DNA of 61,851 nt. It comes from Candidatus Limnocylindria bacterium. Lineage in GTDB: Bacteria; Chloroflexota; Limnocylindria; Limnocylindrales; CSP1-4. A program made the position numbers and the translations under genes. Below are positions 15 to 50,120 of this stretch, piece by piece (position 1 is the stretch's first letter; the number at the start of each line of letters is the position of its first letter). The notes under the pieces were generated by a model, which ran no database searches, had not been told where the DNA came from, and saw nothing but the letters and a program-made list of their open reading frames with translations. Where the stretch lies: assembly GCA_035637675.1 (NCBI GenBank), contig DASPWU010000004.1:1-61851 (forward strand). Reading direction: 5' to 3'.

Positions 15-1193
15 ATGCCGGCCATGCGATTGGCTGGCCGGATGGAGCGCCTCGGTACGGAGACGGCATTCGAGGCCGCGGCGCGCGCCCGCGACCTGGA
101 GGCAACCGGGCGGGATGTCATCCACCTGGAGATCGGCGAGCCCGACTTCGACACGCCGGCGAGCATCCGGGCGGCCGCCAAGCGGGCCCTGGACGACGGC
201 TGGACGCACTACGGACCGGCGCTCGGGTTGCCCGTGCTGCGTGAGGCGATTGCGCTCGACGCGTCCCGTCGGAAGCGCTTTCCGGTCTCCGCCGAGCAGG
301 TCGTGGTCACTCCCGGCGCCAAGCCGATCATGTTCTACGCGATCATGGCACTGGTCGATGAGGGCGACGAGGTCATCTATCCGGATCCAGGCTTCCCAAT
401 CTACGAGTCGATGGCGCGCTTCGTGGGCGCGACCGCGGTGCCCCTGCCGCTGCACCAGGAGCACGAGTTCCGCCTGGATCCTGAGTGGCTCGCCGGGCTC
501 GTGAGTCCGCGGACGCGGCTGATCATCTTCAACTCGCCCGCCAATCCGACCGGCGGGGTCATCGACCGCCAGGACCTCGAGCGGATCGCCGCGATCGCCA
601 TCGAGCACGACCTGGTCGTCCTGGCCGACGAGATCTATGGCCGGATCGTGTACGAGGGCGAGCACGTCTCGATCGCCTCGTTGCCGGGCATGGCCGAGCG
701 GACGATCGTCCTCGATGGGTTCTCCAAGACCTACGCCATGACCGGCTGGCGGCTCGGCTACGCGATCCTGCCGGAGCGGCTCGTGATGCCATTCAGCAGG
801 CTGATCATCAACAGCGTGAGCTGCACGAGCTCGTTCTCGCAGATCGCCGCGGCCGAGGCGCTGCTTGGTCCTCAGCACGAGGTCGAGGCGATGGTCGGCG
901 AGTTCCGCGCCCGGCGCGACCTCGTCGTCGACGGGCTCAACGCGATTCCGGGATTCAGCTGCCTCCGGCCGCAGGGCGCCTTCTACGTCTTCCCGGACGT
1001 CTCGGGGACCGGCCTGACTGGCGCCGAGCTGGCCGACAAGCTCCTGTACGAGGCCGGCGTCTCCGTGCTGGCTGGCACCGCGTTCGGCCAGGTGGGCCGC
1101 GCACACGTCCGGATCAGCTACGCGAACTCCCAGGCCAAGATCCGCGACGCACTCGACCGGATCCGATCGGTCGTTACGCCGCTCGCGGTCTGA
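15..1193 (+). CDS. PLP-dependent aminotransferase, class I/II (aspartate/aromatic aminotransferase-like)
   Basis: 392-aa [18 protein letters not shown] and the PLP-lysine block [13 protein letters not shown] are typical of fold-type I aminotransferases. Confidence 0.85.
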
Positions 1194-1203
1194 GGCGCGA
1201 GCG

Positions 1204-2220
1204 GTGCCCGGAGAAGACGCTCACCGCGCGCGCGTCTTCCTCAGCCGCCGCATTCCGGAGGACGGGCTGCGGCTGATCGTCGACGGGTGCGACGCGACGG
1301 TCTGGCCGGACGAGCTGCCGCCCCCGCGCGACGCGTTGCTTGCCGCCGTCGCCGGCTGCGACGGCATCCTCACCCTGCTCACGGACTTGGTCGACGACGA
1401 GCTGCTCGACGCCGCCGGACCGCAGCTCCGGGTCGTCAGCAACTACGCCGTCGGCTTCGACAATGTCGACGTGCCCGCCTGCACCCGGCGGGGGATTCCC
1501 GTCGGCAACACGCCCGGCGTGCTGACCGACACGACCGCCGACCTGGCCTTCGCGCTGCTCATGGCGGCCGCTCGGCGGCTGCCGGAGGGCGACCGCTACG
1601 TCCGGGCCGGCAACTGGCGAACCTGGGGACCGATGCTCCTGCTGGGACCCGACGTCCACGGCGCGACGCTGGGGATCGTCGGCTTCGGCCGGATCGGTCA
1701 GGCCCTCGCCCGCCGGGCGAGCGGCTTCGGCATGACGGTCCTCTACCACGACGTGAAGGAGTTGCCGGACGACGTGTCGGCGCCACTCGGCGCCACGTTC
1801 GTGGAGCTGGACGAGCTGTTCAAGCGCTCCGATTTCGTCTCGCTCCACGTCAACCTGACGCCGGAGACCAGCCACATGATCAACGCCGAGAGTCTGCGGC
1901 GGATGAAGCCGTCGGCCGTCCTCGTGAACACCTCGCGCGGCCCCGTCGTGGATCAGCCTGCTTTGTACGAGGCGCTTCGCGACGGTGTGATCGCGGCGGC
2001 CGCCCTCGACGTCACGGACCCCGAGCCGATACCGGCCGACGATCCGCTGCTCGGCCTCGACAACTGCCTGATCGTGCCCCACATCGCGTCAGCGTCGCGG
2101 GCTACGCGAGGCAAGATGGCGGAGATGGCGGCCGCAAACCTGCTGGCGGGCGTCCGCGGCGAGCGTCTCCCAACCCCCGTCAACCCCGAGGTCTACGAGC
2201 GTCCGGCTCCCGGACGATAG
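1204..2220 (+). CDS. D-2-hydroxyacid dehydrogenase / glyoxylate-hydroxypyruvate reductase family
   Basis: 338-aa ORF with GTG start. Has the NAD Rossmann motif [24 protein letters not shown] and the catalytic-His block PHIASAS. Confidence 0.85.
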
Positions 2221-7249: not shown

Positions 7250-8041
7250 CTACTCCCAGCGGAACATTCGGGCGGCGAGGCCGGCCAGGACAACCCCCCA
7301 GGCCGCCAGCAATGCCACCGCTGCGGTTGGATCGCCGGCCATCGTGCCGAGCCCGATCCGGAAGGCGTCGGACAGCGCGGCCGCCGGCAGCACCCCCGCG
7401 AGGTCGGCCACGGGCTGCGGCAGGCGGTCCAGGGGCACGATGACCCCGCCCAGGAGGAGCAACAGCAGGTAGAGGCCGTTCGCGCTGGCCAGGGTGGCCT
7501 CGGCCCGGAGCGTCCCGGCCATGAGAAGGCCGAGGCCGGCGAAGGCCAGCGTCCCCAGCAGCAGCGCCACGGCCACGACGAACGCCGAGGCACCCGCGCC
7601 GGGCGCCCATCCGAAGAGGGCGACCGCGATTGCCACCAGAACGACGAGCTGCAGTAACTCGACCGCGACGACCGCGGCGATCTTGGCCGCGACGAGTCCC
7701 CAGCGGGGCAGCGGCGATCCGCCCAGACGCTTGAGCACGCCGTAGGCGCGCTCGTAGCCGGTCGCGATCCCCAGGCTCACGAGGCTCGTCGAGATCACGG
7801 CCAGGGCGGCGACGCCCGGCAGCAGGAAGTCGATCGGCCGGCCGGTCCCCGTCGGCAGGACGTCCACGGAGCCGAAGAAGACGAGAAGGGCGACGGGGAT
7901 CACCAGCGTGACGAGCAGGTTCTCGGCTCGGCGCGACGTCAGCCGCAGCTCCATCGAGGCCTGGGCGAGCGTGGCTCGCCAGGCTGGAGCAGCGCCCGTG
8001 GCGGCGGGCGTCCAGCGCGCCGGCGTCGAGCTCTCGCTCAC
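7250..8041 (-). CDS. ABC-2 type transporter permease
   Basis: 263 aa from GTG 8041 with six hydrophobic helices, as in ABC-2 (DrrB/NosY-type) permeases. The GTG overlaps the TGA of the upstream ATPase gene (GTGA). Confidence 0.75.
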   Translation of the reverse strand: MSESSTPARWTPAATGAAPAWRATLAQASMELRLTSRRAENLLVTLVIPVALLVFFGSVDVLPTGTGRPIDFLLPGVAALAVISTSLVSLGIATGYERAYGVLKRLGGSPLPRWGLVAAKIAAVVAVELLQLVVLVAIAVALFGWAPGAGASAFVVAVALLLGTLAFAGLGLLMAGTLRAEATLASANGLYLLLLLLGGVIVPLDRLPQPVADLAGVLPAAALSDAFRIGLGTMAGDPTAAVALLAAWGVVLAGLAARMFRWE

Positions 8042-9045
8042 GGCATGTGCCCGCCCTCGCGCTCTTCCTGGCTCTCCGCCGAGCCTTCGGACGCCTTCTC
8101 CGCCAGGAGCTCCAGGTAGCGCTCCTCGAGCGTCCCGCCCCCCGTCGTCACCTCCACAACGAGCAGCTGGCGGGACTCGCACCAGGTCGCCAGTCGGCTG
8201 ACGAGCCCGGGCGCCGGGCTCACGCCGTCGAGGCGATAGTGGCCCCCGCCCTCGTCGACCAGATCCGTGCCGGGCGCGCCGTCCGACAGCCGCTCCGCAA
8301 GCGCATGGCGCTCCGCGTGCGACAGGGGAGCCTCCAGTCGGAATCGAAAGCGCGGCGCGGCGGCGGCCGTCAGCTCGGCGGGGGAGGCGAGCGCGATGAG
8401 CCGGCCCGAATCGATGAACGCGACGCGGTCGGCCAGCCTGTCGACGTCGGCCAGGTCGTGGGTCGTGAGCAGCACCGTGACCCCGGCTACGCGAAGCTCG
8501 CCGATGAGCTGGCGAGTGGCGACCTTGGCCGCCGGGTCCATGCCCGTCGTCGGTTCGTCGAGGACGACCAGCTCCGGTCGCCCGACCAGGGCCAGGGCCA
8601 GCCCGAGGCGCTGCTTCTCCCCGCCCGACAGGACCTTGTAGCGCGTGCCGGCGACGTCTCGGAGGCCGACGACGTCGAGCAGCTCATCGGGGGCGTGCGG
8701 AGCTGCGTAGAAGCTGGCGAACAGCCGCAGGATCTCGGCCGGCGTGGCCTGTGGGTAGACGCCACCGGCCTGGAGCATGAGTCCCAGCCGGGCGCGCAGG
8801 CTGGGCGCGTCGCGGGCCGGGTCCAGGCCGAGCACGCGAACGTCACCGGCGTCCGCCCGGCGGTAGCCCTCGATGATCTCCACCGTCGTGGTCTTGCCGG
8901 CGCCATTGGGGCCGAGAAGCCCGAAGATCTCTCCGCGCCGGACCTCGAACGACAGGCGGGCGACGACGTCCCGGCCGGCATATCGCTTGACCAGGCCGCG
9001 GAGGGCGATCGCAATCTCGGTGGTGTCGGACGGGTTGTCGGTCAT
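8038..9045 (-). CDS. ABC transporter ATP-binding protein (DrrA-like, with C-terminal extension)
   Basis: Walker A GPNGAGKTT, signature LSGGEKQRL, Walker B LVVLDEPTTGMD and H-loop TTHD. There is an extra domain of about 100 aa at the C-terminus. The ATG overlaps the stop of the thioredoxin gene (ATGA). Confidence 0.9.
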   Translation of the reverse strand: MTDNPSDTTEIAIALRGLVKRYAGRDVVARLSFEVRRGEIFGLLGPNGAGKTTTVEIIEGYRRADAGDVRVLGLDPARDAPSLRARLGLMLQAGGVYPQATPAEILRLFASFYAAPHAPDELLDVVGLRDVAGTRYKVLSGGEKQRLGLALALVGRPELVVLDEPTTGMDPAAKVATRQLIGELRVAGVTVLLTTHDLADVDRLADRVAFIDSGRLIALASPAELTAAAAPRFRFRLEAPLSHAERHALAERLSDGAPGTDLVDEGGGHYRLDGVSPAPGLVSRLATWCESRQLLVVEVTTGGGTLEERYLELLAEKASEGSAESQEEREGGHMP

Positions 9046-9485
9046 CCGCCGATGGCTGCGTACTGGCGCTCGAAGTCCGCGGCCGTCAGCTCGCCGATCT
9101 GGCGTGACCGGACGATGCCGTCGCGGTCGATGAAATAGGTCTGCGGCGGGGCGAGGACGGTATACACGCTGGCCCGTGAGCCGTCCGGGTCGGTGAGGGA
9201 TGGCCAGGCGGCACCCTCGGTGGCCGCGAACCGGCGGGCCGCGCCCGCGTCGTCATCGAAGACCACTCCCAGGATCGCGAGGCTCGGATGCCGGGCCTGG
9301 GCGTCCCGGAAGAGCGGAAACTCGGCCCGACACGGGACGCACCAGCTGGCCCAGAAGTTCACGATCACCGGTTTGCCCCGCAGGTTCGCCAGGCTCATCG
9401 ACCGTCCATCGAGCGTGGTCCCGCTCAGTGGTGGCGCCTGATCGCCGACGCGGACGCCGACCGGGCTCGGCGGGGTCACGCCCAC
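9042..9485 (-). CDS. TlpA/ResA-like thiol:disulfide oxidoreductase (thioredoxin fold)
   Basis: Has the WASWCVPCRAEFP CxxC motif. Coordinates are the minimal GTG-started ORF. The same frame upstream (to 9617) encodes a signal-anchor helix, RFDRRQLIGLAIIATIAIIAIVAV, with no ATG/GTG/TTG, so the true start is probably further upstream and non-canonical. Confidence 0.75.
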   Translation of the reverse strand: MGVTPPSPVGVRVGDQAPPLSGTTLDGRSMSLANLRGKPVIVNFWASWCVPCRAEFPLFRDAQARHPSLAILGVVFDDDAGAARRFAATEGAAWPSLTDPDGSRASVYTVLAPPQTYFIDRDGIVRSRQIGELTAADFERQYAAIGG

Positions 9486-9617
9486 GGCGACGATGGCGAT
9501 GATGGCAATCGTCGCGATGATCGCCAGGCCGATGAGCTGGCGCCGGTCGAACCTGCTGTCGGACGTCCGATCGAGCCGGCCGGGCGAGTCGGGTGAAGGG
9601 GTCGTGATGAACCTGCG

Positions 9618-10745
9618 CTACTTGAGCGTGATCGTGCCGGTCATGTTCGCGTGCACCGTGCAGACGAACGGATACTGCCCAGCCGGCAGCGCCGGCACCT
9701 GGTAGACGCGGGTCGCCACGCCGTTGAAGATCTCGCCCCGGAATGCCTCGCTGCCGTCCGCCTTCCTGATCGCCACGTCGTGAGGCGTGCCCTGGTCCTG
9801 GTTCTCGAACGCTATCGTGAACGGCTTGCCGGCCGGCCCGGTCACGTCCGCGGTGGTGAACGCGATGGCCTGCGCGACGATCGTGACGTCGGCCGCCGGC
9901 TTGCCCGCGGGCGGGGAGCCCGGCGCCCCCGATGCTCCCGCGGAAGCCGCGGGGCCCGACCCACTAGCCTCGCCCGGTGCGGGCGACCCGATCGCGGCGC
10001 CGGCACTGCCGGCGCTGCCTTTGGGCGGCAGGATGCCGGCCTGCAGGATCGCCGCGCCGACGATGACGATCGTGAACAGCGCGAACGTTCGCAGCGGGAA
10101 ACCCGGCGCCGGCGGGTTGCGCAGGTGGCCCGTCCGGTCGGCCTCCTCCGTCAGACGGTACTCGAGGCGGGCCGCGCGCCACCAGCCCACGAGCGCGATG
10201 ACGAGGCAGATGAACCCGGCCAGGATCATCCAGCCGCCCACGACGAGACCGGCCAGCAGGACCGCCACGCCGACGGCCGAGGTGAACGGCAGGAAGGTGG
10301 GGCCCGGGACGTGGACGCCCGGCGGCGGACCGCCGTGCTCGACCGTAATGGCCATCGTCCCGGAGCCGGCCACGTGCTCGTATTCGTGCATCCCTTCGCG
10401 CAGCCAGTACAGCAGCGCAAGAACGAGCGCTGCAACACCCAGGAGGGCGCCGGCCGGCCCGACCACCAGGCCGAACAGCACCAGCGCCGTCCCGGCTGCG
10501 CCGAAGAACGGCGCGAACGAGGGCCCTGGAGCGTGGACCCCCGGCGGCGCCACGGACACTCGCCGTCCGAACCCGCGCTGGCGCGGGCCGACGCGGGTGT
10601 ACGCCCAGACGAGCCAGACGAGCCACAGCACGACCGAAGCCAGCAGGGCGATCGGGATCAGCCCGACCAGGGCCCCCCAGTCGGGGATGACGAGCTTGGC
10701 CGTCAGGTCCAGGAACGCGTTCCAGAGCTGCTGCAGCTTCTCCAT
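9618..10745 (-). CDS. polytopic membrane protein: duplicated CtaF-like (oxidase subunit IV C-half-like) module fused to a C-terminal type-1 cupredoxin domain
   Basis: 375 aa. An internal repeat of PPGVH-x-PGP-S/T-F-x-PF plus two TM helices ending in EY covers about nt 10371-10550 and 10149-10331. A sixth TM helix and a G/S/A/P-rich linker follow. The 91-aa C-terminal domain (9621-9893) has ligands H (TPHDV) and C-x2-H-x2-M (FVCTVHANM). Confidence 0.8.
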   Translation of the reverse strand: MEKLQQLWNAFLDLTAKLVIPDWGALVGLIPIALLASVVLWLVWLVWAYTRVGPRQRGFGRRVSVAPPGVHAPGPSFAPFFGAAGTALVLFGLVVGPAGALLGVAALVLALLYWLREGMHEYEHVAGSGTMAITVEHGGPPPGVHVPGPTFLPFTSAVGVAVLLAGLVVGGWMILAGFICLVIALVGWWRAARLEYRLTEEADRTGHLRNPPAPGFPLRTFALFTIVIVGAAILQAGILPPKGSAGSAGAAIGSPAPGEASGSGPAASAGASGAPGSPPAGKPAADVTIVAQAIAFTTADVTGPAGKPFTIAFENQDQGTPHDVAIRKADGSEAFRGEIFNGVATRVYQVPALPAGQYPFVCTVHANMTGTITLK

Positions 10746-10775: not shown

Positions 10776-10952
10776 CTAGACGTCGTCCGGCGTGCCGACG
10801 ACGAGGGCATACGCGGCCAGCCCCATCGCGATCCCCAGGGCAGCCAGGGTCGTCGTGCCGCCCGCATCACCGCTCAGGATGAAGTAGACGATGGCGATTA
10901 CGACGAACACTCCCCCAACCGCGAACGCGTTTCTGGGGTGCTTGAACCGCAT
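10776..10952 (-). CDS. small 2-TM oxidase-associated subunit (resembles the N-terminal half of actinobacterial CtaF/subunit IV)
   Basis: This ORF is not in the supplied track because it is under 60 aa. My translation is MRFKHPRNAFAVGGVFVVIAIVYFILSGDAGGTTTLAALGIAMGLAAYALVVGTPDDV, 58 aa. The ATG lies 9 nt after the ctaE stop and the stop lies 30 nt before the next gene. Confidence 0.6.
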   Translation of the reverse strand: MRFKHPRNAFAVGGVFVVIAIVYFILSGDAGGTTTLAALGIAMGLAAYALVVGTPDDV

Positions 10953-10961
10953 GTCGGTCGC

Positions 10962-11591
10962 CTACCTCGAGGGGATGATGTAGAGGATCGAGAACAGGGC
11001 GATCCAGACGACGTCCACGAAGTGCCAGTAGATGGACGTTGCCTCGACGGCGTCGTGATGGCGGGAGGTGAACTGGCCGCTCATCGCCCGGAAGAGCACG
11101 ACGCTGAGCATGATCACGCCGCCCAGGACGTGCGCGCCGTGGAACCCGGTGAGGGTGAAGAACGTGGTTCCGAACGTGCCGTCGGAGAGGCCGAACCCGA
11201 GCTGGCTGTAGTCGTAGGCCTGGCCGATGAGGAACGTGACGCCCATCACAAGGGTGACGGCGATCGCCCGGATCAGGCCGCGACGATCGTCCCGTCGGAT
11301 CGCCCACACGCCCAGCTGGCAGGTGAATGAGCTCGACACGAGGATGATGGTGAGGACGGCCGCCAGCCAGGGCTCGGCGTGCAGGTTGAAGCGCTCGGCC
11401 AGGTGCTCGCCCACCTCGGCAGCCGACGGCGGCCAGGTCGGCGCCGTGGCCCGCACGTTGAAGTAGGCCGCGAAGAGTCCGGCGAAGAACATCACCTCCG
11501 AGCAAATGAACAGGATCATCCCCAGGATCGGGTTGCTGATCCCGTGACGGGGCAGGTCGGCCAGGGCCCCATCGTGCGCCGTCTGGGGCAT
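10962..11591 (-). CDS. ctaE: cytochrome c oxidase subunit III
   Basis: 209 aa from ATG 11591 (MPQTAHDG...). Blocks GMILFICSEVMFFAGLFAAYF, FFTLTGFHGAHVLGG and YWHFVDVVWI are typical of Cox3. It starts 14 nt after the ctaD stop. Confidence 0.9.
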   Translation of the reverse strand: MPQTAHDGALADLPRHGISNPILGMILFICSEVMFFAGLFAAYFNVRATAPTWPPSAAEVGEHLAERFNLHAEPWLAAVLTIILVSSSFTCQLGVWAIRRDDRRGLIRAIAVTLVMGVTFLIGQAYDYSQLGFGLSDGTFGTTFFTLTGFHGAHVLGGVIMLSVVLFRAMSGQFTSRHHDAVEATSIYWHFVDVVWIALFSILYIIPSR

Positions 11592-11605: not shown

Positions 11606-13237
11606 TCACGAGTGGCCGCCGTGGCCGCCCGTCCGGCCATGCCGGGCGTCGAACACCGGACGCTCGGACCTGATCTCCGGCAGATGGTCGAAGTTGTAGG
11701 GCGGCGGCGGTGAGCTGGTTGCCCACTCCAGGGTGTTGCCCTCCCACGGGTCGTCGCCGGCCGGCTCACCGTTCCGCAGCGAGATGAGGACGTTCCACAG
11801 GAACGGCAGGGTGGAGGCGGCGATGATGATGCTGCCGACCGTCGCCACGAGGTTGAGCTGGTTCCAGCCCGCGGTCGACGCGTAGGTCGCGATCCGGCGG
11901 GGCATCCCCTCCAGGCCCAGGATGTGCATCGGAAAGAAGGTCATGTTGAACCCGATGAGCATGAGCACGAAATGAATCTTGCCGAGCGTCTCGTTGAGCA
12001 TTCGACCGCTCATCTTGGGGAACCAGTAGTAGACGCCAGCGAATACGCCGAAGACGGAGCCGCCGAACAGGACGTAATGGAGGTGAGCCACGACCCAGTA
12101 CGTGTCGTGGAGGGCGAAGTCCACCGGCACGGCGGAACTGAAGGCGCCGTTGATGCCGCCGATCAGGAACATCGTCAGGAAGCCCAGGGCGAACAGGAGC
12201 GGCGTCGAGAACGTCAGCTGGCCGCGGAAGAGCGTGGCGATCCAGTTGAACATCTTGACCCCGGTTGGCACCGCGATCAGGAACGTCATGAAGCTGAAGA
12301 ACGGCAGGTAGACCGTCCCGGTCGTGAACATGTGGTGGGCCCAGACCGAGAACCCCAGGGCCCCGATGCCGGCCGTCGCGAACACGAAAGCCTTGTACCC
12401 GAACAGCGGCTTGCGTGAGAAGACGGGCAGGACCTCGCTGACAATGCCCATTGCGATGAGGATCATGATGTAGACGGCCGGGTGGGAGTAGAACCAGAAG
12501 ATGTTCTGCCATAGGACGGCGTTGCCGCCGGTCGCCGGATCGAAGAAGTGGCCGCCGTAGTTCCGGTCGATGAACAGCATGATGAGCGCGCTCGCCAGGA
12601 CCGGCGTGGCTAGGAGCACGAGGACGCTGGTCACGAGCGCGGTCCACACGAGGATGGGCATCCGGAACATCGTCATGCCCGGAGCGCGCATCTTGAATAT
12701 CGTGACGAGGAAGTTGATCGAGCCAAGGATGGAGCTCGTCCCGATGAGCGTCACCGCCACGAGCCACAGGTCCGTCCCCACGCCTGAGTACTTCGACTGG
12801 GCCAGCGGGCTGTAGCTCGTCCAGCCCTCCGCGGCCGCGCCGCCGGGGACGAGGAAGCCGGCCAGGATGATGATCCCGGCCAGGGGCAACATCCAGAACG
12901 ACAGCGCGTTGATCCGTGGGAAGGCCATGTCCGGCGCCCCGATCTGGAGTGGCACGACGTAGTTCGCGAAACCGGCCAGGATCGGGATGATGAACAGGAA
13001 GAGCATGAGCGAGGCATGCATCGTGAACAGCTGGTTGTAGAGATCCGGGGAGAACAGCTTGTTCTCCGGCACGGCCAGCTGGCTGCGAACGCCAAGCGCA
13101 AGGACGCCGCCGATGAAGAAGAACACGAACGAGTTGACGAGGTACAGGATCCCGATCTTCTTGTGGTCGGTGGTGGTGACCCACTCGTAGAGCGCGCTCC
13201 GATAGGTGGCGGCAGGCGTCAGCGCGGTGGTCGCCAT
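11606..13237 (-). CDS. ctaD: cytochrome c oxidase subunit I (A-type haem-copper oxidase)
   Basis: 543 aa. Blocks include HKKIGILYL, WFYSHPAVYIMIL (CuB His with cross-link Tyr), VWAHHMFTTG and HDTYWVVAHLHYV. AAGGAG lies upstream of the ATG. Confidence 0.95.
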   Translation of the reverse strand: MATTALTPAATYRSALYEWVTTTDHKKIGILYLVNSFVFFFIGGVLALGVRSQLAVPENKLFSPDLYNQLFTMHASLMLFLFIIPILAGFANYVVPLQIGAPDMAFPRINALSFWMLPLAGIIILAGFLVPGGAAAEGWTSYSPLAQSKYSGVGTDLWLVAVTLIGTSSILGSINFLVTIFKMRAPGMTMFRMPILVWTALVTSVLVLLATPVLASALIMLFIDRNYGGHFFDPATGGNAVLWQNIFWFYSHPAVYIMILIAMGIVSEVLPVFSRKPLFGYKAFVFATAGIGALGFSVWAHHMFTTGTVYLPFFSFMTFLIAVPTGVKMFNWIATLFRGQLTFSTPLLFALGFLTMFLIGGINGAFSSAVPVDFALHDTYWVVAHLHYVLFGGSVFGVFAGVYYWFPKMSGRMLNETLGKIHFVLMLIGFNMTFFPMHILGLEGMPRRIATYASTAGWNQLNLVATVGSIIIAASTLPFLWNVLISLRNGEPAGDDPWEGNTLEWATSSPPPPYNFDHLPEIRSERPVFDARHGRTGGHGGHS

Positions 13238-13247
13238 CGAATGCTCC

Positions 13248-14396
13248 TTACTTCACCGTGAGCGTGCCCGTCATCGACGGGTGGACCGTGCACACGAATG
13301 GGTACGAGCCGGTCTTGAGAGCCGGCACGTTGTAGGTCGCGTCGGCGGGGCCGGTGATGAGTTCGCCCTTGAACGCCACGCTGCCGTCCGGATTCTTGAT
13401 CTCGACGTCGTGCTGGGTTGCGTTGTCCTTGTTGGTGAAGTGGATCTGGAACGGCTTCTCGGCCGGCGCTTCGAGGGTGGCCTTGTCGAACGCGATGTTC
13501 TGGGCCGCGAGCTCCAGGACGGCGCCGGCGGGTGGGCTGCCAGGCGGTGGGCTTCCGGCGGGTGCGCTGCCGGCCGGCGGGCTCGCGGCCGGAGGAGGCG
13601 ACTTCTTGGCCTCCTCGATCTGCTGCTTGAGCCAGGCGTCGTACTCCGCCCGGGTGACCGCCTTGACCTCGAACGTCATGCCACCATGCCCCGCCCCGCA
13701 CAGCTCGGCGCACTGGCCGCGGAACGTCTGTTCTGCATCGCCCGCGTCGACGGTGAAGTCGAAGTTGTTCTCTTTGTTGGGGTCGGTCACGGGGTTGACG
13801 TCGCGCTTGAACAGGAACTTCGGCACGTAGAAGGCGTGAATGACGTCCACGCTGTGGAGCGTGACGTGGATCGGCTCGCCGACCGGAACGACCATCGTCC
13901 CGAAGACGCCATGTCCCTGCGCGTCGGTCGTGAAGAGCGGCGTCTTTCCGTCATCGCTGAGATAGGCGAAGCTCCAGGCGAACCGCTCGGCGACAGCCCT
14001 GACCCGGACGCCCGGGTGATCGCTCTTGGCCTCGACCGCGTTCAGCGTCTGCCACGAGACGACGAACAGGTACAGGACGATGATCGTAGGGATGATGGTC
14101 CAGATGATCTCGACCAGGTTGTTGCCGTGTGTCTGAGGGGGCAGGTCGGCATCGTCGGGCTTGCGCCGGTAGCGAACGACCGCGTAGATGATGGCGCCCT
14201 CGACGGCCAGGAAGATGAGGACCGCGAGGACGAACACGATGTCGTACAGGGACGAGACTTCCGCGCCCTGGGACGTCGATGCGCTTGGCGGGTAGAGCTG
14301 TGGGAACTGGGAGGCGCATCCCGCCGCCACAAGAGCCAACAGCAGCGAGGCCACGATTGCCGCGGGGCGCGTCCGCTTGTTCCTCTTGATCGGCAT
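13248..14396 (-). CDS. ctaC: cytochrome c oxidase subunit II with C-terminal amicyanin-like cupredoxin domain
   Basis: 382 aa: lipoprotein-like signal (LLALVAAGC), two TM helices and a CuA centre (H...CAELCGAGHGGM). A 28-aa P/A/S/G linker (about 13524-13607) follows. The 91-aa cupredoxin domain (13251-13523) has TQHDV and FVCTVHPSM (C-x2-H-x2-M). Confidence 0.9.
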   Translation of the reverse strand: MPIKRNKRTRPAAIVASLLLALVAAGCASQFPQLYPPSASTSQGAEVSSLYDIVFVLAVLIFLAVEGAIIYAVVRYRRKPDDADLPPQTHGNNLVEIIWTIIPTIIVLYLFVVSWQTLNAVEAKSDHPGVRVRAVAERFAWSFAYLSDDGKTPLFTTDAQGHGVFGTMVVPVGEPIHVTLHSVDVIHAFYVPKFLFKRDVNPVTDPNKENNFDFTVDAGDAEQTFRGQCAELCGAGHGGMTFEVKAVTRAEYDAWLKQQIEEAKKSPPPAASPPAGSAPAGSPPPGSPPAGAVLELAAQNIAFDKATLEAPAEKPFQIHFTNKDNATQHDVEIKNPDGSVAFKGELITGPADATYNVPALKTGSYPFVCTVHPSMTGTLTVK

Positions 14397-14572: not shown

Positions 14573-14710
14573 GACGCCGCGGTCGCGTGGCAGGTTCGTA
14601 GCGGAGCGCGCCGCGGTCGCGTGGCAGGTGCGTAGCGGAGGGCGCCTCGGTTCCGTGACAGGATGGGCGGCGGAGGGCGCCTCGGTTCCGTGGCAGGATG
14701 GGCGACGATG
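14573..14710. repeat. four-unit tandem array (34/34/35/35 bp) in the ctaC / ctaG divergent region
   Basis: Units start at 14573, 14607, 14641 and 14676. Units 1/2 differ at 3 positions and units 3/4 at 4. All four share the core CGTG(G/A)CAGG at a 34-35 bp period. The array ends on the ATG at 14708. Confidence 0.9.
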
Positions 14711-15832
14711 ATGGCTCGCCGACCTGTCCGTAGCCGGTTTGCCGGCCGCCGGTTCGCCGTCCGCCGGTTCGCCAGGCGCTGGTTTCGGCGGCCGGCGGCG
14801 CACATCGCCGCCGGACTCGTTCTCGCCATAGGCGTCCTCGGCGGTCTCGCGCCGCCGGTGCTTGCCCACGGGGCGAACGCGCTCCTCCCGCCGGCCCCGT
14901 CCGACTTCCTCTTCGACTGGGCGTTCGATGGCCTCGTGACGATTCCGCTCCTGCTGGTCGGCGCCGCCTACCTGTGGGCGGTCGGACGGGTCGATGCGGC
15001 GCACCCGGGAAACAGGGTGCCCCGCTCGCGGATCGTCGCGTTCCTGGCAGGCCTGGCCGTCATCGAGATCGCCCTCCAGTCGATCATCGAGCGCTACGAC
15101 ACGACGCTGTTCTCGGTCCATATGGTCCAGCACATCCTGCTCACGCTGGTTGCGCCGCCACTCCTCGCGCTCGGCGCCCCGATCACGCTCGCGTTGCGCG
15201 TCGCCCGGCCCGAGTTCCGACGCCGCGTCGCCCTGCCGATCCTGCACAGCCGGTTGCTCCGATTCCTGACGTTCCCGGTGGTGGCCTGGCTGCTCTTCGC
15301 CAGCGTCATGTGGGGCACCCACTTCTCGCCCATCTTCAACGAGTCGCTCGAGCAGCCTCTCGTCCACCAGCTCGAGCACCTCGCGTACCTCGTCGCCGGG
15401 CTGCTGTTCTGGTGGCCGGTCGTTGGCGTCGACCCCAGCCCCTGGCGGATCCCGAATCCGGTCCGGGCCATGTACCTGTTCCTGCAGATGCCCCAGAACA
15501 CGTTCCTCGCCCTGGCTATCTACAGTGCCGCCGCTCCGCTCTATCCGCATTACGCAGCGATTCGCATCCGATGGGGGCCCGACCCGCTGATGGATCAGCA
15601 GATCGCGGGCGGCCTCATGTGGATCGTCGGGGATGTCGTCTTCATCGTGGCGATCGTTCTCACCGTCGTCGGGTGGATGCGGTCCGAAGAGCGGGAGGCG
15701 CTGGGGCGCGAGCGCCGCGAGGATGCCCAGATCGCCGCAATCCGCGCCCGGGAAGCCGCCCTGGCGGACAGGCTGGCCGCCGAGCGGCTGGGCGAGGATC
15801 GGGCCGGCGACGAGCGGATCGGAGGGCCGTAG
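14708..15832 (+). CDS. cytochrome c oxidase assembly factor, Caa3_CtaG family membrane protein
   Basis: Polytopic protein with LFSVHMVQHILLTLVAPPLLALGAPITLALR and FLQMPQNTFLALAIY, as in Bacillus-type CtaG (copper insertion). Transcribed divergently from the oxidase operon. The start could be ATG 14708/14711 or the track's ATG 14663. Confidence 0.8.
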   Translation: MMARRPVRSRFAGRRFAVRRFARRWFRRPAAHIAAGLVLAIGVLGGLAPPVLAHGANALLPPAPSDFLFDWAFDGLVTIPLLLVGAAYLWAVGRVDAAHPGNRVPRSRIVAFLAGLAVIEIALQSIIERYDTTLFSVHMVQHILLTLVAPPLLALGAPITLALRVARPEFRRRVALPILHSRLLRFLTFPVVAWLLFASVMWGTHFSPIFNESLEQPLVHQLEHLAYLVAGLLFWWPVVGVDPSPWRIPNPVRAMYLFLQMPQNTFLALAIYSAAAPLYPHYAAIRIRWGPDPLMDQQIAGGLMWIVGDVVFIVAIVLTVVGWMRSEEREALGRERREDAQIAAIRAREAALADRLAAERLGEDRAGDERIGGP

Positions 15833-46841: not shown

Positions 46842-49800
46842 TCAGCCCTCGAGGCTCGACCAGCGCGACCGCGCTCGGCGCGCCGCGGCCAGGTTCCCCT
46901 TCCGCTCGTACGCGGCCACTGCCGCCGACGCGTGGCGAAGGGCGTCCGACGGCCGGCTGGCGCCGGCAAGCGCCTCGGCAGCCATCTCCTGGCTCCAGCC
47001 GATCATGTCGAGCTGGTCAGAGCCGGACAGGAGCGCGATTGCGTCTCGGGCCGAGGCCTCGGCTTCCGCGTGACGACCTTGTCGCGCGTGGAGCTTCGCC
47101 TCGACGCCACGCCACAGGCACTGCGACGCGATGTCGTCGGCGGCCGAGGTCTCGCGGCATTCGGCGACCAGCGCGATCGCCTCGGCATCCCGGCCCTGCC
47201 GGGCGCACAGGTCGGCGTACCGGCCGAGGAGCGTCGACGTCCCGGATCGCTCGCCGAGGGCGCGGTACTGGCCGATACCGAGGCGTAGCTCGCGCTCGGC
47301 GGCCTCGTCGTCGCCGGCCAGCCGCTCGACGTCCGAGGAAAACAGGCTGACGCCGGCCAGCAAGAGGACCAGGCCCCGCTCCTGCCGCTCGACCCGGGCC
47401 GACCGATACATCACCCGGGCTTCCTCGTAGCGTCCGATCCTGGCCAGGAGACCGGCGATCCGCGGATCCCCTCCCGCGACAGGGTGCGCCCGGCCGGCGG
47501 TCGCCCTGATCTCCAGGATCCGGCCGACCGCCTCCCGAACCGGCGTCGGCCCGAAATAGAGCGCGCTCGGAATCCACGTGCGAAGATCGTCGACCTCGCG
47601 GCCGGCCTCGGCGGCGAGGGCGTGGTCGAGTGCCTGCAGCCACGCCGCCTCTGCCGCTGCCCATTGGCACCGATTGCGAGACACGTCTCCCCGGAGCCGC
47701 CAGGCTCGCGACAGCCCCAGCTCGTCGCCGGCCGAGGCGAACGCCGCCCGCGCCTCATCGGCAGCGGCCAGCGTCTCCTCCGCACGGATCGACGGATCCA
47801 CCTTGTCCCGGACGGCGAGTGCGGCCAGCCGCGCGTGCCACGTTCCGGGAACGTCGCCGCGTGCCTCGGCGGCAGCCAGGGCGGCCGCGGCGGACGCCGC
47901 GGCCGCATCCAGCTCGCCGACCGCGAACTGGGCCGCCGACATCTCCACCAGGCGCATCGGTCGGGCTCGCCTGTCGGGCGCCGTCAGGTCCGTCGATCGA
48001 GACAACAGGTGCGCGGCGGCCTGGGCGTCGCCTCGGTCACGCGCCTTCAGGGCGACGGCCCAGAGCAGGTCGCTCGCCCGGCGGGCCATCGCCGCCGCCG
48101 CGTCGCTGTTGGGCATCAGCTCGGCTCGATAGCGGGCCGCTTGCTCCAGGTGATAGGCGATGATTTCCTCGAACTCCGGGCGGTCCCCGGCGGTCCGCTC
48201 GAGCCAAGCCGCGAAACGCTCGTGGAGGTCCGCCCGCTCGTCCTTGGGCATCCCCCCGTAAGCGGCGTCGCGGATCAAAAGGTGCCGGAATCGATAGGCC
48301 TCGTCCGAGGCGCCTGGCTGGAGGTCGGGCCTGATGAGCTCCTTGCGGACCAGGTTGAGCAGGCTGCCGGGCACGGCCGGCCGCTCGTCGTCCGGTGTCA
48401 GCTCGGCCACTGCGCCGCGCGAGAACTGCTTGCCGACGACCGACGCGCGCTCGATCGCGCTCCGTTCGCGCCGGGCCAGACGATCCAGCCGTGCTGCGAT
48501 GAGGGCGGCGATGGTCGGTGGGACGACGAGATCGGCCAGATCGCCGACCGGTACCCAGCCGTCGCTGGTGGGCCGCAGCCGGCCGTCGTCGACCAGCATC
48601 GCCACCAGCTCTTCCACGAACAGCGGGTTCCCTTCACCCGCTTCCACGATCCGCCGGGCGGCGACATCCGGCATCTGCCAGCCGCCCAGCAGGTTCGCCG
48701 CAAGCCTGCCGCTGTCCTCCGCCGAGAGCGGCTCGAGCAGCGTCGTCGTAGCGTTGCGCCTGCCGCCACTCCAGTTCGGACGAGCCTCGAGCAGCTCGGG
48801 TCGGGCCATGCAACAGAGCAGGATCGGAGCTCGGCGACTCCAGTCCGCGACGTGCTCGATGAGGTCCAGGAGGCTCGATTCTGCCCAGTGGAGGTCGTCG
48901 AACACGACGATCAGCGGGCGCCGGGCCGCCAACGTCTCGTAGAGGCGCCGGGTGGCCCAGGCGATCTCCTCCGCCCGGGCCGGTGCCTCGCCTGCCATGC
49001 CCAGCGCCCCGAGCAGCCCGTCCGCGATCGCCGCGGCGCGATCCTGACCGGTCAGCATTCCGGTCAGCCGATCTCGGGCGGCCGCGGCGCCGGTCGTGTC
49101 GGCGATCCTGGCCGCCGCCCGGATCGTCTGGGTCACCGGCCAGTAGGTGATGCCGTCGCCATATGGCAGGCACCGCCCGCGCAGGATCGTCGCCTCCTCG
49201 CGGGCCAATTGCAGGAACTCCCGGACGAGCCGGCTCTTGCCCACCCCGGCGGCGCCCAGGACCGTCATGAGCTGGCAGCTGGGGCCGGAGCGAGATCGCT
49301 CGAAGGCCTCGCGCAGGAGCCTGATCTCACGCTTGCGGCCGACGAGTGGCGAGTTGAGCCGGCCGGCAATCGGTTGGGCTCGTTGTGCCACCGCCAGCAG
49401 GCGATGGGCAAGGATCGGCTCGGCCTTGCCCTTCACGGTCAGTGGCGGGAGAGCCTCGGTCGTCACGGCGCCGCGAACGAGCCGCACGGTCGTCGCTCCC
49501 AGCAGGATGTCGCCGGCTCGCGCGACCTGCTCGAGCCGGGCGCCGACGTTGACGGCGTCGCCGGTCACGAACGTGCCGCCGGCCGACGGATTGCCGGTGA
49601 CCACCTCGCCGGTGTTGACGCCGATCCGCACCGAAAGCCGGAGGCGCCACAGGCGCTCGAGCTCGACGTTCAGCCCTTCGAGCGCGGCCCGCATGTCGGC
49701 CGCCGCGCGCACGGCCCGGAGCGCGTCGTCCTCATGTGCCACCGGCAGGCCGAAGACGGCCATGATCGCGTCGCCGACGAACTTCTCGACCGTTCCGCCG

Positions 49801-50120
49801 TGGCGCTCGATGACCACTCGCATCGCGCCGAAGTAGCGGTCCAGGACCCGCCGGACGGTCTCCGGGTCGAGCCGCTCGCCGAGCCCGGTCGAGTCGGCCA
49901 GGTCGCTGAACAGGATCGTGACGGTTCGGCGAGTCTCCCGGCCCGCAACCCCCGGACCGGTCGATTCGGTCGGCAGGCTCGCCCCGTTGCCGGCGGGAGC
50001 CGCCGCGCGGCCATCCGAGCGAACCGTGGCTCCCGCCGGCGCAAGCAGCGCGACGCCACACGCCATGCAGAACCGGGCGGCATCCGGGTTGGAGGCGGCA
50101 CACGACGGGCAGCTGGCCAT
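46842..50120 (-). CDS. multidomain signalling protein: zinc ribbon, class III adenylate/guanylate cyclase, AAA_16/STAND P-loop NTPase, TPR-like repeats
   Basis: 1092 aa. N-terminal CPSC...CMACG, then the cyclase block TILFSDLADSTG...KFVGDAIMAVFG...GVNTGEVV. The P-loop is VLGAAGVGKSRL with Walker B IVVFDDLHWA. A long helical-repeat C-terminus follows with no recognisable HTH at the end. Confidence 0.85.
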   Translation of the reverse strand: MASCPSCAASNPDAARFCMACGVALLAPAGATVRSDGRAAAPAGNGASLPTESTGPGVAGRETRRTVTILFSDLADSTGLGERLDPETVRRVLDRYFGAMRVVIERHGGTVEKFVGDAIMAVFGLPVAHEDDALRAVRAAADMRAALEGLNVELERLWRLRLSVRIGVNTGEVVTGNPSAGGTFVTGDAVNVGARLEQVARAGDILLGATTVRLVRGAVTTEALPPLTVKGKAEPILAHRLLAVAQRAQPIAGRLNSPLVGRKREIRLLREAFERSRSGPSCQLMTVLGAAGVGKSRLVREFLQLAREEATILRGRCLPYGDGITYWPVTQTIRAAARIADTTGAAAARDRLTGMLTGQDRAAAIADGLLGALGMAGEAPARAEEIAWATRRLYETLAARRPLIVVFDDLHWAESSLLDLIEHVADWSRRAPILLCCMARPELLEARPNWSGGRRNATTTLLEPLSAEDSGRLAANLLGGWQMPDVAARRIVEAGEGNPLFVEELVAMLVDDGRLRPTSDGWVPVGDLADLVVPPTIAALIAARLDRLARRERSAIERASVVGKQFSRGAVAELTPDDERPAVPGSLLNLVRKELIRPDLQPGASDEAYRFRHLLIRDAAYGGMPKDERADLHERFAAWLERTAGDRPEFEEIIAYHLEQAARYRAELMPNSDAAAAMARRASDLLWAVALKARDRGDAQAAAHLLSRSTDLTAPDRRARPMRLVEMSAAQFAVGELDAAAASAAAALAAAEARGDVPGTWHARLAALAVRDKVDPSIRAEETLAAADEARAAFASAGDELGLSRAWRLRGDVSRNRCQWAAAEAAWLQALDHALAAEAGREVDDLRTWIPSALYFGPTPVREAVGRILEIRATAGRAHPVAGGDPRIAGLLARIGRYEEARVMYRSARVERQERGLVLLLAGVSLFSSDVERLAGDDEAAERELRLGIGQYRALGERSGTSTLLGRYADLCARQGRDAEAIALVAECRETSAADDIASQCLWRGVEAKLHARQGRHAEAEASARDAIALLSGSDQLDMIGWSQEMAAEALAGASRPSDALRHASAAVAAYERKGNLAAARRARSRWSSLEG

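Follow-up and report, generated by a model that had tools for sequence, protein, structure and literature searches.

We report that a 375-amino acid (aa) membrane protein from Candidatus Limnocylindria, here named X, is probably an integral subunit of an A2-type CuA aa3 oxidase, in which a doubled subunit III hairpin is joined to a tethered cupredoxin that would act as a one-electron carrier in a relay from complex III to CuA. X is the product of an open reading frame (ORF) at 9618-10745 on the minus strand of a 61,851-nucleotide (nt) stretch of contig DASPWU010000004.1, the whole of which we call the window. The proposal draws on the architecture of X, its homologies, the conservation of its copper ligands, its predicted topology and its gene linkage. 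At least 928 homologues were found, and databases label them only as ‘plastocyanin’ or ‘cupredoxin domain-containing protein’. The layout of X, with transmembrane (TM) helices numbered from TM0 and model confidence given as the predicted local distance difference test (pLDDT), is as follows.

9618-10745, minus strand: X, membrane protein with a cupredoxin (N-terminal helix, TM0, two subunit-III-type hairpins, TM5, linker and predicted type-1 copper cupredoxin)
10593-10745, minus strand: N-terminus, residues 1-51, with an amphipathic helix (2-19) and the first TM helix (23-51)
10368-10556, minus strand: repeat 1, residues 64-126, with the PPGVHAPGPSFAPF motif, a two-helix hairpin and then YWLREGMHEY
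10152-10334, minus strand: repeat 2, residues 138-198, with the PPGVHVPGPTFLPF motif, a two-helix hairpin and then GWWRAARLEY
10038-10094, minus strand: TM5, residues 218-236, predicted to lead the chain outward across the membrane from its cytoplasmic face
9894-10022, minus strand: tether, residues 242-284, flexible, rich in G/S/A/P, pLDDT below 50
9621-9893, minus strand: cupredoxin domain of predicted type-1 copper class, residues 285-375, ligands H322, C362, H365 and M368

The two repeats of the membrane part are unmistakably related to each other. Residues 66-121 and 140-195 (nucleotides ~10383-10550 and ~10161-10328) are identical at 30 of 56 positions without gaps, and each forms a two-helix hairpin ending in EY. 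Their Smith-Waterman score of 146 compares with 29.9 ± 6.0 in 1000 shuffles (z = 19), none of which reached 146. When single repeats were used as profiles in a search of the Protein Data Bank (PDB), both found the first two helices of oxidase subunit III. Repeat 2 (profile A3) matched residues 10-65 of Rhodobacter sphaeroides subunit III (1m56_C, E = 2.3e-6), and repeat 1 (profile A4) matched TM1-2 of the mouse (7o37_c, E = 2.4e-6) and R. sphaeroides (1m56_C, E = 1.6e-5) subunits. More than 12 further COX3 chains, the human and bovine ones included, followed at E < 1e-3, as did residues 544-597 of the fused subunit I+III of the Thermus caa3 oxidase (2yev_A). The repeats and subunit III have a signature in common, His-x-x-x-Pro-Ser-x-Trp-Pro, then the hairpin, then Trp-Trp-Arg-Asp ... 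Glu; in a looser form it reads H-x-P-x-PS-x-x-P ... W-(W/L)-R-(D/E) ... E. The resemblance was not found to extend further along the chain: TM5 and the EADRTGH loop were considered as descendants of a loop and helix 3 of subunit III, and this was rejected on a local alignment score of 15, below the shuffled mean of 19.5.

The same hairpin can be approached from the actinobacterial side. There, CtaE and CtaF together equal subunit III, with CtaF supplying helices 1-2 (PMC8361435), which accounts for the matches of the X family to the CtaF family in Pfam (Cyt_c_ox_IV, PF12270). All 36 aligned orthologues match this family at E ≤ 0.01, the best being P0053 (50.5 bits, E = 2.8e-13). Each of the 10 orthologues examined individually exceeds the gathering threshold of 26.9 bits, and in 6 of them both repeats are matched. 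The matched profile positions, ~82-125, are the C-terminal half of CtaF. X itself aligns through residues 150-188 to profile positions 84-122 (20.5 bits, E = 5.5e-4). Judged by these profiles, a ‘CtaF-like module’ and a ‘subunit III hairpin’ are one piece seen from two sides, of which X holds two copies. X nevertheless stands outside the CtaF family in the strict sense, since its architecture differs and the window protein scores below the threshold.

An AlphaFold2 model built on the 36 orthologues places an N-terminal amphipathic helix before six TM helices (23-51, 78-95, 97-126, 152-169, 171-205 and 218-236), followed by a disordered linker (242-284, its end also placed at 278; pLDDT < 50) and a cupredoxin predicted with high confidence (pLDDT > 95). 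The N-terminal region carries four residues that are invariant among the orthologues (W8, P21, D22 and W23), and a conserved EADRTGH motif, on the predicted cytoplasmic side, precedes TM5, while the tether differs among orthologues in both length and sequence. Across the family, the predicted cytoplasmic loops hold a mean of 10.4 Lys+Arg residues, compared with 1.7 in the N-terminus, the two hairpin turns and the segment after TM5. In canonical subunit III, the N-terminus and the loop between helices 2 and 3 lie on the cytoplasmic (N) side. The charge distribution and the homology to helices 1-2 of subunit III thus both indicate that the hairpin ends of X are inside and its cupredoxin outside; the N-terminus is likewise predicted to be outside.

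The C-terminal domain is closely related to a second cupredoxin, which forms the C-terminus of subunit II (CtaC) encoded in the same operon. The last 91 residues of the two proteins align without gaps and are identical at 50 of 91 positions (BLASTP: 55% identity over 89 aa, E = 1e-31). In both domains the ligands H, C, H and M fall at positions 38, 78, 81 and 84. In X these correspond to H322, C362, H365 and M368, which are invariant in the 36 aligned sequences, and the domain is recognized by Pfam Cupredoxin_1 (5.6e-10, 39.6 bits against a cut-off of 27). The closest folds in Foldseek are amicyanin (1id2_A, E = 6.4e-8) and auracyanin (E = 1e-7); the X profile also matches amicyanin in the PDB (3.4e-10), and plastocyanins are among the best sequence and fold matches as well. 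The ligand loop, C-x2-H-x2-M, is that of amicyanin in the alignments. We take the domain to be a putative type-1 copper domain of amicyanin-like character, with copper binding predicted from its conserved ligands. Compared within single genomes at 61 related loci, the cupredoxins of X and CtaC are on average 53% and up to 69% identical. Orthologous cupredoxins are 53-55% identical across genomes, and X-CtaC pairs overall average only 49%. These values hint at concerted evolution or at a shared constraint imposed by common partners.

Much of this had been anticipated by an initial annotation of the locus, made from the sequence alone. The gapless 50 of 91 identities to CtaC, the common ligand spacing and the G/S/A/P linker were all reproduced, as was the internal duplication at the coordinates it had given, with the two TM helices and EY of each copy now visible in the model. 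The CtaF motif that it had named, GFFSPHSWWP followed by VFEY, is indeed present in the Mycobacterium tuberculosis CtaF chain 8hcr_H. Its placement of the cupredoxin outside a six-helix membrane part agrees with the charge distribution and the subunit III homology. Its central suggestion, that an oxidase accessory module had been duplicated and fused to a second cupredoxin, is supported here, although the duplicated unit is more precisely TM1-2 of subunit III. The expected profile match to Cyt_c_ox_IV was borne out for the orthologues (36 of 36) and fell short for the window protein (20.5 against 26.9 bits).

X is the fifth gene of a minus-strand operon that runs from ctaC, with its cupredoxin, through ctaD, ctaE and a 58-aa ORF to X, and continues into genes for a TlpA-like protein and an ABC-2 transporter. 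The genes around X are as follows.

13248-14396, minus strand: ctaC, subunit II, whose lipoprotein-type signal and intact CuA motif (CAELCGAGHGGM) are followed by a P/A/S linker leading to the C-terminal cupredoxin (nt 13251-13523)
11606-13237, minus strand: ctaD, subunit I (Pfam COX1, 9e-163), with YSHPAVY at residue 250
10962-11591, minus strand: ctaE, five-helix subunit III, starting at the ATG at 11591 and 209 aa long
10776-10952, minus strand: small unannotated ORF between ctaE and X, encoding 58 aa (MRFKHPRNAF...) that include two TM helices, with a GAGG ribosome-binding site
9042-9617, minus strand: TlpA/ResA-like thiol-disulfide oxidoreductase with a CVPC motif (Pfam AhpC-TSA and Redoxin)
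7250-9045, minus strand: ABC-2 type transporter (exporter) at the operon end, with ATPase (8038-9045) and permease (7250-8182) assigned by Pfam
14663-15832, plus strand: Caa3_CtaG-type oxidase assembly factor (Pfam, 4.1e-79), divergent from the operon

Two features of these genes bear directly on the role of X. CtaE matches only positions 78-255 of the 258-position Pfam COX3 profile, from which we conclude that it is a five-helix subunit III without helices 1 and 2. In CtaC, Pfam recognizes COX2_TM, COX2 and Cupredoxin_1, and the same scan gave no cytochrome c domain (haem c, CxxCH) on this subunit. The YSHPAVY of CtaD is, on our reading, the A2-type oxidase motif (YS-HP-x-VY in place of HPEVY).

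This gene order is conserved almost throughout. A scan of one genome per species detected relatives of X in 374 genomes, and the locus counts that follow refer to the best 80 of these, all of them metagenome-assembled genomes (MAGs) of Chloroflexota and mostly labelled Candidatus Limnocylindria or Limnocylindrales. Directly upstream of X lies ctaE in 80 of 80 loci, and ctaC is upstream in all 65 loci where this could be assessed, with a C-terminal cupredoxin on CtaC in 64 of the 65. The conservation of X beside oxidase genes and its co-occurrence with the ctaC-cupredoxin fusion, both put forward as checks by the initial annotation, are therefore evident. Also retained are the divergent ctaG (64/65), the downstream TlpA-like gene (75/76) and the ABC-2 genes at the operon end (68/71). 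The single locus without the fusion, L047 (3437-4372, Limnocylindrales), has a CtaC that stops inside the P/A/S linker and so lacks the cupredoxin, while X keeps its own, which argues against the domain on X being the dispensable one of the two.

The membrane module of X is rare, with 376 clusters at E ≤ 1e-3 among 1.84 billion representative proteins, and it almost never occurs without a cupredoxin, the exceptions being fragments or frameshifted calls. Several representatives of odd length (P0169, P0174, P0178, P0184, P0240 and P0255) were considered as variant architectures and set aside as frameshifted or arginine-rich mistranslations. The truly divergent members, P0242 and P0206, keep the whole architecture and the order COX3-X-redoxin, and their motif PPGVHxxxPSWWP is even nearer to those of CtaF and COX3.

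A third cupredoxin of the same kind is found on the complex III side in related genomes. At locus L050, an additional cupredoxin match lies ~5 kb from X (13102-14169, minus strand). The protein concerned has 355 aa: a membrane anchor at its N-terminus precedes a cytochrome c domain (CARCH), and a Ser/Thr/Pro linker joins this to the cupredoxin at the C-terminus, an architecture that defines a large conserved family in this lineage. The gene comes after those for the N- and C-terminal parts of cytochrome b and for the Rieske protein, which identifies its product as the cytochrome c subunit of a Rieske/cytochrome b complex. This cluster and X could be placed on one contig in six genomes, and in every one of them they are 5-18 kb apart. 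The cluster is placed in these relatives as follows.

5818-10505 in L083 and 5925-10591 in L084: Rieske/split-cytochrome-b cluster, also present at L050, L085, L086 and L087

The three cupredoxin classes, on X, on CtaC and on the cytochrome c subunit, are 50-53% identical between classes and 53-58% within a class, and their consensus sequences are almost identical. The window opens with two genes (15-2220, plus strand), one for a class I/II aminotransferase and one for a 2-hydroxyacid dehydrogenase, whose counterparts at L084 come directly after the cluster; given this synteny, the cluster probably lies just past the left edge of the window in this genome. In the relatives, a conserved membrane-anchored Kelch beta-propeller protein is encoded after the cytochrome c-cupredoxin gene, and a Fer4/Pyr_redox_2 oxidoreductase before the cluster. 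At 46842-50120 (minus strand), the window also encodes a protein of ~1100-1200 aa that combines adenylate/guanylate cyclase and AAA_16 domains, and a similar gene adjoins the cluster in relatives (L083, 12608-16186; L085, 7612-8041). Elsewhere in the window the genes are ordinary ones for metabolism and transport, and no other respiratory complex was found.

Taken together, these observations suggest how X may work. It would provide, in tandem duplicate, the N-terminal two-helix hairpin that is absent from the five-helix CtaE, and so play the same role as CtaF does in actinobacteria, with its hairpins docked at the subunit III site. Both hairpins would start and finish on the cytoplasmic side, the sixth helix would take the chain outward, and the disordered tether of ~45 residues would keep the copper domain on the outer side. 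The contact surface with complex III is made up, in mycobacteria, of CtaE and CtaF (PMC8361435); by homology to this piece, the anchor of X would sit at the III-IV interface, if a supercomplex forms. As the oxidase has CuA, it requires a one-electron donor at its outer face, and with no haem c domain on the oxidase, tethered type-1 copper domains would be the most economical donor. The electron route could then start at the Rieske centre, run through the haem c and next the cupredoxin of the complex III subunit, and continue over the cupredoxin of X and/or CtaC to CuA, so that copper domains would replace the bridging haem c domains of caa3 and of actinobacterial bcc-aa3 systems. The idea of a copper relay gains support from the third paralogous cupredoxin on the cytochrome c subunit in related genomes. 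We suggest, as a more tentative extension, that Limnocylindria-type Chloroflexota could carry out quinol-to-oxygen electron transfer through three tethered paralogous type-1 copper domains, in an obligate ‘copper-wired’ III-IV supercomplex where electrons would hop from one cupredoxin to another like it, without the use of a diffusible carrier.

A number of points weigh against assigning X this role. The window protein is itself below the Cyt_c_ox_IV gathering threshold, and the full-family X profile matched no solved CtaF chain in the PDB at E ≤ 10. Comparisons by hhalign were weak, both with M. tuberculosis CtaF alone (E = 0.026, probability 1.9%) and with a low-diversity, mycobacteria-dominated CtaF alignment (P = 0.0016); the search for CtaF homologues had returned only near-identical mycobacterial sequences, which are of no use for building a diverse CtaF profile. 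In Foldseek, the membrane part of X gave no significant match among 350,542 chains (best E = 0.76). The nine top-ranked chains were all CtaF, COX3 or CtaE (E of 0.8-3, none significant), and the full-length model recovered cupredoxins only. The docking of the hairpins at the subunit III site is proposed by homology. The Rieske/cytochrome b cluster is not in the window, so that its presence in this genome is deduced from synteny with L084. Finally, all the organisms concerned are uncultured MAGs, and the assignment is drawn entirely from sequence.

Other roles for X can be set against the same observations. It is unlikely, in our judgement, that X serves as a structural or stabilising partner of the oxidase in the manner of AcoP, and not as an obligatory carrier, with electrons reaching CuA mainly via the CtaC cupredoxin or another carrier. 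The precedent, AcoP of Acidithiobacillus ferrooxidans, is a membrane-anchored cupredoxin, encoded in an oxidase cluster, that binds its oxidase tightly and is needed for optimal activity (PMC4059628). CtaC moreover has its own cupredoxin in 64 of 65 genomes, so the domain on X could be redundant for electron entry, and the hairpins alone could be the essential part of the protein. However, a purely stabilising role fits poorly with copper ligands that are invariant across the family, with the near absence of cupredoxin-less membrane modules among the 376 representative clusters, and with the retention of the X cupredoxin in L047, where CtaC has none. We find it harder still to favour a division of labour in which each of the two cupredoxins on the oxidase would take electrons from a donor of its own, one from the bc complex and the other, in the manner of amicyanin or rusticyanin, from a separate periplasmic or extracellular system such as a dehydrogenase or metal oxidation. 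Among solved structures the nearest relatives are amicyanins, whose partner is a dedicated dehydrogenase; a tree partly separates the X class from the CtaC class, and the conserved Kelch protein after the cytochrome c-cupredoxin gene could be read in the same sense. Yet the classes are nearly as similar between (50-53%) as within (53-58%), with near-identical consensus surface motifs, and this closeness suggests a common set of partners; nor does the operon have conserved genes for a dehydrogenase or for metal oxidation.

Cupredoxin-like folds are found in some copper chaperones, and X could also be a tethered copper chaperone or maturation factor for the CuA or type-1 sites, working with the TlpA-like reductase and CtaG and being no permanent subunit. 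Its gene does lie between the structural genes and that for the TlpA-like thiol reductase, and the Caa3_CtaG assembly factor and ABC-2 transporter are conserved in the cluster. We nonetheless regard this as very improbable. The H-C-H-M ligand set with C-x2-H-x2-M is that of an electron-transfer type-1 site such as amicyanin has, and is unlike both the Met/His-rich site of PCuAC and the CxxxC site of Sco; the membrane part has its homologue in a structural piece of subunit III that CtaE lacks; and the reuse of the cupredoxin module by the bc complex, on its cytochrome c subunit, fits electron transfer and not chaperoning. An integral oxidase subunit with a tethered electron carrier is thus the reading we prefer.

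Two further genes of the operon deserve comment. The 58-aa ORF between ctaE and X keeps its position in 76 of the 80 related loci, and for this reason it probably encodes a further small oxidase subunit. It resembles the N-terminal half of mycobacterial CtaF weakly (hhalign P = 0.0024). In searches with it, one CtaF reached 19.6 bits and other CtaFs ~10 bits, which is decoy level, and 11 variants of the ORF gave no PF12270 match in Pfam. Downstream of X, the TM anchor of the TlpA-like protein (LIGLAIIATIAIIAIVAV; 9486-9617, minus strand) lies in frame 5′ of the first ATG/GTG/TTG and has no canonical start codon, and the frame of this ORF is that of X, separated from it by the TAG stop of X alone. 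Stop-codon readthrough from X into the TlpA-like ORF was considered and rejected, as the shared frame is not kept in other loci (e.g. L002 and L004); it is probably due to chance together with a non-canonical start (ATC/CTG).

A full-text literature search found no published description of the X fusion or of Limnocylindria oxidases. The present analysis offers a specific annotation, split subunit III/CtaF-like oxidase subunit with tethered cupredoxin, for hundreds of vaguely labelled proteins. The closest counterpart of the membrane part is actinobacterial CtaF of the bcc-aa3 supercomplex (cytochrome c oxidase polypeptide 4, PF12270; PDB 6ADQ, 6HWH, 8HCR and 7Q21), likewise a separate membrane protein that gives helices 1-2 of subunit III to a five-helix CtaE (PMC8361435), with an SPHSWWP motif followed by a hairpin that ends in FEY. 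CtaF, however, has ~140 aa, four TM helices, one hairpin and no extramembrane domain, whereas X is 375 aa long, combines two hairpins with two other TM helices and bears a tethered cupredoxin, and comes from Chloroflexota and not Actinomycetota. In canonical seven-helix subunit III (R. sphaeroides, mouse, human and bovine), residues ~8-65 align to each repeat of X (E = 2e-6 to 4e-4). In X, by contrast, the hairpin is detached from the rest of subunit III; its coding sequence lies downstream of ctaE, it occurs as a tandem duplicate joined to other elements, and the similarity does not reach into helix 3.

Membrane-anchored cupredoxins that belong to oxidases have been found elsewhere. Sulfocyanin (SoxE), a single-domain cupredoxin with a membrane anchor, is encoded with the SoxM supercomplex of Sulfolobus and is physically associated with it. 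AcoP is a membrane-anchored single-domain cupredoxin that, like X, is encoded with a terminal oxidase, and it associates with it physically (PMC4059628). Unlike X, both have a simple single-helix anchor without homology to subunit III or CtaF, and the copper site of AcoP, which comes from an acidophile, is unusual in being green. Amicyanin and auracyanin, which match the C-terminal domain best in sequence and fold, are free-standing carriers, soluble or lipid-anchored, whereas the domain of X is covalently attached by its tether to a subunit of the oxidase. In Chloroflexus, auracyanin carries electrons between alternative complex III and the oxidase or reaction centre.

With the caa3 (A2) oxidases, exemplified by that of Thermus thermophilus (2YEV), the locus has in common the YSHPxVY motif of subunit I and a carrier domain fused to the C-terminus of subunit II, which makes the substrate carrier part of the enzyme. 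It differs in that this carrier is a cupredoxin of predicted type-1 copper class and not haem c, and in that a second carrier is anchored through X; lacking haem c on subunit II, the oxidase is not a caa3. On the complex III side, the nearest parallel is the actinobacterial dihaem cytochrome cc, QcrC, a membrane-anchored two-domain carrier that bridges complex III and CuA and replaces soluble cytochrome c (PMC8361435). The Limnocylindria protein similarly combines a TM-anchored cytochrome c with a second redox domain, and its gene stands beside Rieske/cytochrome b genes. It differs in that the second domain is a cupredoxin in place of a second haem c, and in that matching cupredoxins are present on the oxidase side.

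If the relay is real, the locus would offer a natural system for electron hopping between tethered, near-identical copper centres, a view of how the parts of a modular subunit III can be separated, doubled and made into a membrane anchor, and an example of a respiratory chain that depends less on haem c and favours copper. To our knowledge, few solutions to the problem of the last carrier have been described, namely soluble cytochrome c or cupredoxins, haem c on subunit II as in caa3, and the dihaem QcrC. The arrangement described here would be another, in an abundant uncultured lineage of soil and freshwater, in which a blue-copper module is placed twice on the oxidase and, in relatives, also on complex III.

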